This document shows positions 6,846 to 10,243 of a stretch of DNA of 13,959 bases, one piece after another. The notes beneath the pieces are model-generated. The model was not told where the DNA came from. It saw only the letters and a list, made by a program, of their open reading frames with translations, and did no database searches. Position 1 is the first letter of the stretch. Each line of letters opens with the position of its first letter. The stretch comes from Escherichia coli (GTDB lineage Bacteria > Pseudomonadota > Gammaproteobacteria > Enterobacterales > Enterobacteriaceae): the NCBI RefSeq assembly GCF_003334315.1, contig NZ_QOWR01000079.1. One strand, given 5' to 3'. A program made the position numbers and the translations under genes.

Positions 6846-8696
6846 ATGCCTAAGTACCGTTCCGCCACCACCACTCATGGTCGTAATATGGCGGGTGCTC
6901 GTGCGCTGTGGCGCGCCACCGGAATGACCGATGCCGATTTTGGCAAGCCGATTATCGCGGTTGTGAACTCGTTCACCCAATTTGTACCGGGTCACGTCCA
7001 TCTGCGCGATCTCGGTAAACTGGTCGCCGAACAAATTGAAGCGGCTGGCGGCGTTGCCAAAGAGTTCAACACCATTGCGGTGGATGATGGGATTGCTATG
7101 GGCCACGGGGGGATGCTTTATTCACTGCCATCTCGCGAACTGATCGCTGATTCCGTTGAGTATATGGTCAACGCCCACTGCGCCGACGCCATGGTCTGCA
7201 TCTCTAACTGCGACAAAATCACCCCGGGGATGCTGATGGCTTCCCTGCGCCTGAATATTCCGGTGATCTTTGTTTCCGGCGGCCCGATGGAAGCCGGGAA
7301 AACCAAACTGTCCGAGCAGATCATCAAGCTCGATCTGGTTGATGCGATGATCCAGGGCGCAGACCCGAAAGTTTCTGACTCCCAGAGCGATCAGGTTGAA
7401 CGTTCCGCCTGCCCAACCTGCGGTTCCTGCTCCGGGATGTTTACCGCTAACTCAATGAACTGCCTGACCGAAGCGCTGGGTTTGTCGCAGCCAGGCAACG
7501 GCTCGCTGCTGGCAACCCACGCGGACCGTAAGCAGCTGTTCCTTAATGCTGGTAAACGCATTGTTGAATTGACCAAACGTTATTACGAGCAAAACGACGA
7601 AAGTGCACTGCCGCGTAATATCGCCAGTAAGGCGGCGTTTGAAAACGCCATGACGCTGGATATCGCGATGGGTGGATCGACTAACACCGTACTTCACCTG
7701 CTGGCGGCGGCGCAGGAAGCGGAAATCGACTTCACCATGAGTGATATCGATAAGCTTTCCCGCAAGGTTCCACAGCTGTGTAAAGTTGCGCCGAGCACCC
7801 AGAAATACCATATGGAAGATGTTCACCGTGCTGGTGGTGTTATCGGTATTCTCGGCGAACTGGATCGCGCGGGGTTACTGAACCGTGATGTGAAAAACGT
7901 ACTTGGCCTGACGTTGCCGCAAACGCTGGAACAATACGACGTTATGCTGACCCAGGATGACGCGGTAAAAAATATGTTCCGCGCAGGCCCTGCGGGCATT
8001 CGTACTACACAGGCATTCTCGCAGGATTGCCGTTGGGATTCTCTCGATGACGATCGCGCAAACGGCTGTATCCGCTCGCTGGAACACGCCTACAGCAAAG
8101 ACGGCGGCCTGGCGGTGCTCTACGGTAATTTTGCTGAAAACGGCTGCATCGTGAAAACCGCGGGCGTCGATGACAGCATCCTCAAATTCACCGGCCCGGC
8201 GAAAGTATACGAAAGCCAGGACGACGCGGTAGAAGCGATCCTCGGTGGCAAAGTTGTCGCGGGCGATGTGGTGGTGATCCGCTATGAAGGCCCGAAAGGC
8301 GGCCCTGGCATGCAGGAAATGCTCTACCCAACCAGCTTCCTGAAATCAATGGGTCTCGGTAAAGCCTGTGCGCTGATCACCGACGGTCGTTTCTCTGGCG
8401 GCACCTCTGGTCTTTCCATCGGCCACGTCTCACCGGAAGCGGCAAGCGGCGGCAGCATTGGCCTGATTGAAGATGGTGACCTGATCGCTATCGACATCCC
8501 GAACCGTGGCATTCAGTTACAGGTAAGCGATGCCGAACTGGCGGCGCGTCGTGAAGCGCAGGAAGCTCGGGGTGACAAAGCCTGGACGCCGAAAAACCGT
8601 GAACGTCAGGTTTCCTTTGCCCTGCGTGCCTACGCCAGCCTGGCGACCAGCGCCGACAAAGGTGCGGTGCGCGATAAATCGAAACTGGGGGATTAA
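6846..8696 (+). CDS. ilvD: Dihydroxy-acid dehydratase (616 aa)
   Basis: Protein [43 protein letters not shown]... with the cysteine cluster CPTCGSC typical of the IlvD/EDD [Fe-S] dehydratase family. GGGAG Shine-Dalgarno upstream. Confidence 0.96.
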
Positions 8697-8698
8697 TG

Positions 8699-10243
8699 AT
8701 GGCTGACTCACAACCCCTGTCCGGTGCTCCGGAAGGTGCCGAATATTTAAGAGCGGTGCTGCGCGCGCCGGTCTACGAAGCGGCGCAGGTCACGCCGCTA
8801 CAAAAAATGGAAAAGCTCTCGTCTCGTCTTGATAACGTCATTCTGGTGAAGCGCGAAGATCGTCAGCCAGTTCATAGCTTTAAGCTGCGCGGCGCATACG
8901 CCATGATGGCGGGCCTGACGGAAGAACAGAAAGCGCACGGCGTGATCACTGCTTCTGCGGGTAACCACGCGCAGGGCGTCGCGTTTTCTTCTGCGCGGTT
9001 AGGCGTGAAGGCCCTGATCGTTATGCCAACCGCCACCGCCGACATCAAAGTCGATGCGGTACGTGGATTCGGCGGCGAAGTGCTGCTTCATGGCGCGAAC
9101 TTTGACGAAGCGAAAGCTAAAGCGATCGAACTGTCACAGCAGCAGGGGTTCACCTGGGTGCCGCCGTTCGACCATCCGATGGTGATTGCCGGGCAAGGCA
9201 CGCTGGCGCTGGAACTGCTCCAGCAGGACGCCCATCTCGACCGCGTATTTGTGCCAGTCGGCGGCGGCGGTCTGGCGGCGGGCGTTGCGGTGCTGATCAA
9301 ACAACTGATGCCACAAATCAAAGTGATCGCCGTAGAAGCGGAAGACTCCGCCTGCCTGAAAGCAGCGCTGGATGCGGGTCATCCGGTTGATCTGCCGCGC
9401 GTAGGGCTATTTGCTGAAGGCGTAGCGGTAAAACGCATCGGTGACGAAACCTTCCGTTTATGCCAGGAGTATCTCGACGACATCATCACCGTCGATAGTG
9501 ATGCGATCTGTGCGGCGATGAAGGATTTATTCGAAGATGTGCGCGCGGTGGCGGAACCCTCTGGCGCGCTGGCGCTGGCGGGAATGAAAAAATATATCGC
9601 CCTGCACAACATTCGCGGCGAACGACTGGCGCATATTCTTTCCGGTGCCAACGTGAACTTCCACGGCCTGCGCTACGTCTCGGAACGCTGCGAACTGGGC
9701 GAACAGCGTGAAGCGTTGTTGGCGGTGACCATTCCGGAAGAAAAAGGCAGCTTCCTCAAATTCTGCCAACTGCTTGGCGGGCGATCGGTCACCGAGTTCA
9801 ACTACCGTTTTGCCGATGCCAAAAACGCCTGCATCTTTGTCGGCGTGCGCCTGAGCCGCGGCCTCGAAGAGCGCAAAGAAATTTTGCAGATGCTCAACGA
9901 CGGCGGCTACAGCGTGGTGGATCTCTCCGACGACGAAATGGCGAAGTTGCATGTGCGCTATATGGTCGGCGGGCGTCCGTCACATCCGTTGCAGGAACGC
10001 CTCTACAGCTTCGAATTCCCGGAATCACCGGGCGCGCTGTTGCGCTTCCTAAACACGCTGGGTACGCACTGGAATATTTCTTTGTTCCACTATCGCAGCC
10101 ACGGTACCGACTATGGGCGCGTGCTGGCAGCGTTCGAACTCGGCGACCATGAACCGGATTTCGAAACCCGGCTAAATGAGCTGGGCTACGATTGCCACGA
10201 CGAAACCAATAACCCGGCGTTCAGGTTCTTTTTGGCGGGTTAG
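8699..10243 (+). CDS. ilvA: Biosynthetic threonine deaminase / threonine dehydratase (514 aa)
   Basis: Protein MADSQPLSGAPEGAEYLRAVLRAPVYEAAQVTPLQKMEKL... contains the PLP-binding region (SFKLRG) and a C-terminal regulatory domain. Two tandem ATGs at 8696 and 8699; I call the second, which gives 514 aa. The first overlaps the ilvD stop (taATGATGG). Confidence 0.93.
   Translation: MADSQPLSGAPEGAEYLRAVLRAPVYEAAQVTPLQKMEKLSSRLDNVILVKREDRQPVHSFKLRGAYAMMAGLTEEQKAHGVITASAGNHAQGVAFSSARLGVKALIVMPTATADIKVDAVRGFGGEVLLHGANFDEAKAKAIELSQQQGFTWVPPFDHPMVIAGQGTLALELLQQDAHLDRVFVPVGGGGLAAGVAVLIKQLMPQIKVIAVEAEDSACLKAALDAGHPVDLPRVGLFAEGVAVKRIGDETFRLCQEYLDDIITVDSDAICAAMKDLFEDVRAVAEPSGALALAGMKKYIALHNIRGERLAHILSGANVNFHGLRYVSERCELGEQREALLAVTIPEEKGSFLKFCQLLGGRSVTEFNYRFADAKNACIFVGVRLSRGLEERKEILQMLNDGGYSVVDLSDDEMAKLHVRYMVGGRPSHPLQERLYSFEFPESPGALLRFLNTLGTHWNISLFHYRSHGTDYGRVLAAFELGDHEPDFETRLNELGYDCHDETNNPAFRFFLAG

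Follow-up and report, generated by a model that had tools for sequence, protein, structure and literature searches.

Tight stop/start junctions in the Escherichia coli ilvGMEDA operon and the probable start codon of ilvA

Translational coupling of ilvD and ilvA in Escherichia coli is the result announced in the title of Harms, Higgins, Chen & Umbarger (1988; J Bacteriol 170:4798), and the gene pair, the species and the junction are the same as those considered here. The coupling that an earlier note had inferred from the present DNA matches that published result. An internal promoter, ilvAp, has also been documented (Lopes & Lawther 1989, as given in a paper that cites it). Coupling at ilvD–ilvA is, then, already in the literature, the operon and its junctions have been known since the 1980s, and nothing new is claimed here in those respects.

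Other gene pairs provide points of comparison. At galT–galK and rplK–rplA (both +3), as at ilvD–ilvA, the stop codon is situated a few nucleotides before the next start codon, and the Shine–Dalgarno (SD) sequence is contained in the last codons of the upstream gene (Brown & Wade, PMC12548453), although the enzymes differ from those of the ilv pair. The spacing at trpE–trpD is -1, while pairs of the trpB–trpA type have NTGA (-4) overlaps. The ilvG–ilvM junction, at which the genes for the two subunits of a single enzyme meet, has this same motif, the commonest in prokaryotes. In K-12, the strain generally used as a model, ilvG carries a frameshift. In the review by Brown & Wade, -4 (NTGA) and -1 (TAATG or TGATG) are the two commonest stop/start arrangements in prokaryotic operons, and the NTGA and TAATG motifs at the ilv junctions are therefore unremarkable. 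The same review places the highest coupling efficiency at spacings of -4 to +3 nt, a range that includes both ilvG–ilvM (-4) and ilvD–ilvA (+2 from the conserved ATG, or -1 from an optional ATG upstream of it).

The window, i.e. the whole stretch of 13,959 nt that was analysed, represents the ilvLXGMEDA-ilvY-ilvC region of an E. coli strain with an intact ilvG. The RefSeq annotations of UMNK88, an E. coli strain showing 100 % identity, and of K-12 MG1655 give the gene order yifB(-), ilvL, ilvX, ilvG, ilvM, ilvE, ilvD, ilvA, ilvY(-), ilvC, ppiC(-), and the open reading frames listed for the window match that order. A 1-kb junction query matched every one of the 5,426 complete E. coli genomes, with 100 % identity in many E. 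coli chromosomes. By gene order and near-identity, the window belongs to the E. coli ilvLXGMEDA operon.

Four genes of the operon, all on the + strand, form the two tight junctions. In both the open reading frame list and the RefSeq annotation, ilvG (3926..5572; acetohydroxyacid synthase (AHAS) II large subunit, 548 aa) is intact and ends in TGA at 5570–5572, unlike the K-12 gene, which is a pseudogene. It is followed by ilvM (5569..5832; AHAS II small subunit, 87 aa). Farther downstream are ilvD (6846..8696; dihydroxy-acid dehydratase, 616 aa), with its TAA stop codon at 8694–8696, and ilvA (8699..10243; biosynthetic threonine deaminase, 514 aa when counted from the conserved ATG). The other two junctions are not tight: 19 nt separate stop from start at ilvM–ilvE, and 64 nt, with a 12-bp hairpin inside, at ilvE–ilvD.

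Direct reading of the window shows that ilvD ends in ...CTG GGG GAT TAA. An ATG at 8696..8698 (+ strand; hereafter ATG1) has its first base, A8696, in common with the ilvD stop codon, and a second ATG at 8699–8701 (ATG2) is in frame with it. The reading frame from ATG1 (8696..10243) encodes 515 aa, and 2 nt (TG) lie between the ilvD stop codon and ATG2. The description in the earlier note, taATGATGG with tandem in-frame ATGs at 8696 and 8699, the first sharing a base with the ilvD stop, is thus accurate as to the letters. The K-12 junction, TAATAATG, has a single ATG at a spacing of +2, whereas the window has TAATGATG together with a G-to-A change in the SD sequence (IlvD G616D). As a result of its extra ATG the window displays an apparent -1 overlap that is not present in K-12. 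In K-12 MG1655 the junction is GGGGGGTTAATAATGGCT, with ATA in place of ATG1; within the 12 junction bases at 8690–8701, the window and K-12 differ at two. If the strain used by Harms et al. (1988) was K-12, coupling would need no ATG1, because K-12 does not possess it.

To compare the junction among relatives, 80 ilvD–ilvA loci were taken from different species of Enterobacterales (IlvA identity 85–100 %), and each junction was read; counts out of 81 include the window. Each of the 80 loci has a start codon (78 ATG and 2 GTG) at the position equivalent to 8699, followed by the conserved A-[D/E]-S-Q-P-L. An in-frame ATG located 3–6 nt before this conserved start, and overlapping or adjoining the ilvD stop codon, was found in 36 of the 80 species and is missing in 44. 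In the latter the spacer is TC, CC, CG, TT, TA, GG or AA, or else it is longer. Within Enterobacter, Buttiauxella, Cedecea, Kosakonia and Klebsiella/Raoultella, as well as within E. coli, the upstream ATG comes and goes. The distance from the ilvD stop codon to the conserved start, on the other hand, is between -1 and +6 nt in 81/81 sequences, with +2 the value in 57 of the 80 relatives, while the sequence of the spacer drifts freely.

Variation within E. coli was determined by counting junction alleles as exact 30-mers in the 5,426 complete genomes. The K-12-type allele, TAATAATG, which does not contain ATG1, was present in 3,153 genomes. Three alleles with ATG1 were counted: GGGGGGTTAATGATGGCAGAC in 1,705 genomes, GGGGGGTTAATGATGGCTGAC in 344 and the window's own, GGGGGATTAATGATGGCTGAC, in 198. 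These four alleles account for 5,400 of the 5,426 genomes, and ATG1 is found in approximately 41 % of E. coli genomes and missing in approximately 58 %.

The putative ilvA SD sequence, GGGGG (8687..8691, + strand), is situated in the region of the penultimate Gly codon of ilvD, 7 nt before the ATG at 8699 and 4 nt before that at 8696. A GGNGG sequence occurs at the 3′ end of ilvD in 81/81 sequences (44 GGGGG, 33 GGAGG and 4 GGTGG), so that the conserved SD coincides with the two final codons of the gene, which specify Gly-Gly. The IlvD C-terminus is KLGG in 79 of the 81; the window allele encodes KLGD, and its G-to-A change at 8692 moves the run of G residues one base upstream. In the 80 relatives the GGNGG core is located 6–10 nt before the conserved ilvA start (6 nt in 57 of them), which is the canonical SD-to-start spacing. 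Where ATG1 is present it follows the SD core by 3 nt, or by 4 nt in the window, and such a spacing is short for SD-guided initiation. The duplex predicted to form with the 3′ end of 16S rRNA has an energy of -8.4 kcal/mol for the window and -10.5 kcal/mol for the K-12 allele, making the ilvA SD duplex the strongest of those at the four internal junctions.

Annotation and structural data point to the same start codon. The RefSeq start of ilvA is ATG2 in every strain inspected, including those with ATGATG, and the N-terminus of the crystallised enzyme (PDB 1TDJ) is MADSQ, corresponding to a start at ATG2. In public databases a 515-aa model beginning MMADSQ is found in 103 contigs, whereas the 514-aa form is found in at least 1,000; the longer model, which comes from some submitters, represents an annotation inconsistency and not evidence for ATG1. 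A literature search for N-terminal sequencing of IlvA yielded nothing direct.

Since a start codon is present at this position in 80/80 loci, ATG1 is optional, and RefSeq and PDB 1TDJ agree, the comparison argues that ilvA starts at ATG2 (8699) and that ATG1 is dispensable. The statement in the earlier note that the start is ambiguous from sequence holds for a single sequence taken alone; it no longer does once the 80 loci are compared, as these favour 8699. Nor does the overlap at ilvD–ilvA, which that note had presented as a functional arrangement, survive the comparison, as K-12, 3,153 of the 5,426 E. coli genomes and 44 of the 80 species do not have ATG1. With ATG1 often absent, ATG2 universal and both RefSeq and PDB 1TDJ using ATG2, the functional arrangement appears to be adjacency with a 2-nt gap. 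The overlapping ATG does not behave as a functional, conserved start, and a true gene overlap at ilvD–ilvA is accordingly not indicated by these sequences.

It might nevertheless be argued that in strains with TAATGATG, the window included, ATG1 is used, either alone or beside ATG2, which would produce a 515-aa proteoform beginning Met-Met-Ala and a true -1 overlap. ATG1 is in frame, it overlaps the stop codon as TAATG, the second commonest coupling motif (PMC12548453), and a reinitiating ribosome would reach it first. An upstream in-frame ATG is also found more often than expected for a random dinucleotide, in approximately 41 % of E. coli genomes and in 36 of the 80 other species, TG being the commonest 2-nt spacer (28/56), and some GenBank annotations start there. 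Against these points, the site is variably present within single species and genera, as expected if it were unconstrained, its SD core is merely 3–4 nt away, ATG2 is never lost, and RefSeq never picks ATG1. We consider use of ATG1 to be rather unlikely. A related proposal, and one that we likewise regard as doubtful, is that the ATG/ATA polymorphism at 8696–8698 (roughly 41:58 in E. coli) is not neutral. Partial reinitiation at AUG1 would then give a Met-Met IlvA proteoform and/or an altered degree of coupling and level of IlvA, to which the SD-weakening G616D change might add. Methionine aminopeptidase does not cut before Met, and a Met-Met N-terminus is retained.

With ATG2 as the start, coupling at ilvD–ilvA may be pictured as follows. 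Ribosomes ending ilvD translation at UAA (8694–8696) would be released directly over the ilvA initiation region, which would consist of the GGGGG/GGAGG SD contained in the terminal Gly codons of ilvD and then the conserved AUG at 8699. Release at this point would promote ilvA initiation, through termination–reinitiation or through local delivery of ribosomes, and this would constitute translational coupling. The SD of ilvA would also allow it to be started independently, for example on ilvAp transcripts. The AUG at 8696 would be a neutral or near-neutral ATG/ATA strain variant, unneeded either for coupling or for the production of IlvA. To our knowledge, IlvD and IlvA form no complex, and the coupling would for that reason serve co-expression and not stoichiometry.

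The same strong SD could be taken to mean that ilvA is translated essentially independently, with its own SD and ilvAp transcripts sufficing, the tight spacing reflecting genome compaction, and little coupling taking place. The predicted SD duplex, the strongest of the internal junctions at -8.4 to -10.5 kcal/mol, fits this reading, as does the documented existence of ilvAp. A sigma-70 consensus scan of 6700–10400 revealed no promoter-like sites, but the published ilvAp need not fit a strict consensus. Moreover, the local fold does not exceed those of shuffled sequences in stability (z=-0.25), and a helix that could occlude the SD is not conserved, leaving no obvious block to free ribosomes. 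Independent translation is nonetheless at odds with the coupling announced in the title of Harms et al. (1988), and also with the retention of a stop-to-start distance of -1 to +6 nt in 81/81 sequences despite free drift of the spacer. It is, in our estimation, distinctly improbable.

A mechanism in which a hairpin between the SD (GGGGG, 8687–8691) and CCCCU in ilvA codons 6–7 (8714–8718) conceals the SD, together with both AUGs, until it is melted by a ribosome translating ilvD is very improbable and was rejected: the helix is present in both the minimum free energy and centroid folds of 8630–8750, and all five of its pairs are possible in 37/81 sequences, but it is just 5 bp long with a loop of 22 nt, shuffled sequences fold equally well, and the central pair is broken in 44/81 (GGAGG/CCGCU in 20 and GGTGG/CCCCU in 4) in a pattern that is neither conserved nor covarying and offers no compensation. 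As RNA unfolding is not borne out at this junction, termination–reinitiation or local ribosome delivery would be, by elimination, the better-supported mechanism for ilvD–ilvA.

At the other tight junction, ilvG ends in ...TTA TCA TGA; the ilvM ATG occupies 5569–5571 and the ilvG TGA 5570–5572, generating ATGA at 5569–5572 (-4). This overlap, which had been noted previously, is kept in 5/5 genera. A second in-frame ilvM ATG that had been missed is located at 5572–5574 (MMQHQ...). The -4 motif obliges codon 2 to begin with A (PMC12548453), and a tandem ATG is for this reason an easy outcome. A candidate SD sequence for ilvM, GGAG (5557..5560, + strand), is contained within ilvG, 8 nt before the ATG at 5569 and 11 nt before that at 5572, and its predicted duplex with the 3′ end of 16S rRNA has an energy of -6.4 kcal/mol.

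The DNA sequence TGGAGAAATTATC is identical in five genera, and the TGGAGAAATTATC-ATGA junction is common to the window, Intestinirhabdus, Scandinavium, Salmonella and Pluralibacter. Among the best 120 IlvM homologues, 115 start with MM and the others with MI, MN or MQ. Intestinirhabdus (ATGATA) and Scandinavium (ATGAAT) have lost the second ATG but keep the first. The overlapping first ATG (5569) is thus the conserved start of ilvM, which is the opposite of the situation at ilvA.

The ATGA overlap, with GGAG 8 nt upstream, would put the ilvM start within reach of ribosomes terminating on ilvG for reinitiation, and coupling of this kind would suit the co-production of two subunits of one enzyme. 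On the basis of the junction sequence, coupling at ilvG–ilvM is plausible; a search of the literature found no direct test of it. In K-12, despite the frameshift in ilvG, a translational fusion to ilvM is expressed and is subject to repression by GcvB (PMC9299463); initiation at ilvM is therefore at least partly autonomous, and the gene also has a ribosome-binding site of its own. Folding of this region is, like that at ilvD–ilvA, unexceptional relative to shuffled sequences (z=-0.40 and z=-0.25, respectively), and the analysis gave no indication of a conserved structure sequestering the ribosome-binding site.

Taken together, these data are very probably best explained by an ilvGMEDA operon with tight junctions at ilvG–ilvM and ilvD–ilvA, in which ilvA is coupled to ilvD and started at ATG2, ATG1 is neutral or near-neutral, and ilvM may be reached by reinitiation from ilvG. 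The conservation of tight spacing, -1 to +6 nt at ilvD–ilvA in 81/81 sequences and ATGA at ilvG–ilvM in 5/5 genera, is consistent with this explanation.

The biological consequences are small, since the operon, its junctions and ilvD–ilvA coupling have all been known for decades. If ATG1 were used in the approximately 41 % of E. coli genomes that possess it, a Met-Met IlvA proteoform would result, with no obvious consequence. In strains with ATGATG the correct start of ilvA would be 8699, yet some GenBank records carry the 515-aa model. For the engineering of ilvD or ilvA, the SD of ilvA is also the Gly-Gly C-terminus of IlvD, and the expression of ilvA is coupled to the translation of ilvD.

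The ilvM gene opens, as does ilvA, with two in-frame ATG codons in tandem (ATGATG, positions 5569-5574). It is apparent from the sequences of Intestinirhabdus (ATGATA) and Scandinavium (ATGAAT) that in ilvM the overlapping first ATG is the conserved one. The two junctions differ in this respect, as the conserved ATG is the first, stop-overlapping codon in ilvM, but not in ilvA.

A G-to-A allele at position 8692 gives IlvD a C-terminus ending in KLGD, as compared with the near-universal KLGG. The same base falls within the ilvA Shine-Dalgarno sequence, for which the predicted duplex is -8.4 kcal/mol in the window and -10.5 kcal/mol for the K-12 allele. 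Of the 5,426 complete E. coli genomes counted, 198 carry the window's exact 30-mer at this junction.

Some GenBank submissions annotate a 515-aa IlvA beginning MMADSQ, corresponding to positions 8696-10243 (103 contigs; APK48931.1, APL75117.1 and BBP19415.1), whereas the RefSeq form, present on at least 1,000 contigs, is 514 aa in length. The difference between these records is an inconsistency of annotation. At residue 457, numbered from the second ATG (window position approximately 10055), the window's IlvA has His (LGTHWNIS) where the crystallised protein, PDB 1TDJ, has Tyr (LGTYWNIS).

In a locus from Salmonella enterica subsp. arizonae (L029, locus position approximately 2490-2503), TTA (Leu) is found in place of the ilvD stop codon TAA. 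The stop, TGA, lies one codon further on (GGT TTA TGA TGG), and as a result of this downstream shift it is overlapped by both ilvA ATGs, at -4 and -1. The 53-kb KPC plasmid p09A19009_A_KPC (NZ_OQ821046.1, 22572-22775) bears a complete ilvA together with an N-terminally truncated ilvD fragment; the junction reads TAATCACCATG, and the sequence does not resemble that of E. coli. Matching junctions were observed at nine plasmid locations in all.

At the 5′ end of the window, a 5S rRNA gene and two tRNA genes represent the end of an rRNA operon (69-396). Among Rfam families, RF02744 (Rev39_5p_UTR) alone covers the ilvL leader/attenuator (3617-3906), with a score of 157 bits.

Downstream of ppiC, a PemK/MazF-family toxin gene is situated on the minus strand (13380-13909). 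The copy in E. coli UMNK88 is intact, at 450 nt; in the window, a 1-bp deletion near 13619 splits the reading frame into two ORFs (13380-13655 and 13610-13909), and the gene is, therefore, probably a pseudogene. Past approximately 13880, the window and UMNK88 diverge.

The 64-nt ilvE-ilvD spacer contains a perfect 12-bp GC-rich hairpin, AAATGGGACGG-CACG-CCGTCCCATTT (6789-6816), which scores on the minus strand as a terminator-like site. Possible roles for this hairpin are those of an mRNA stabiliser or an attenuator.
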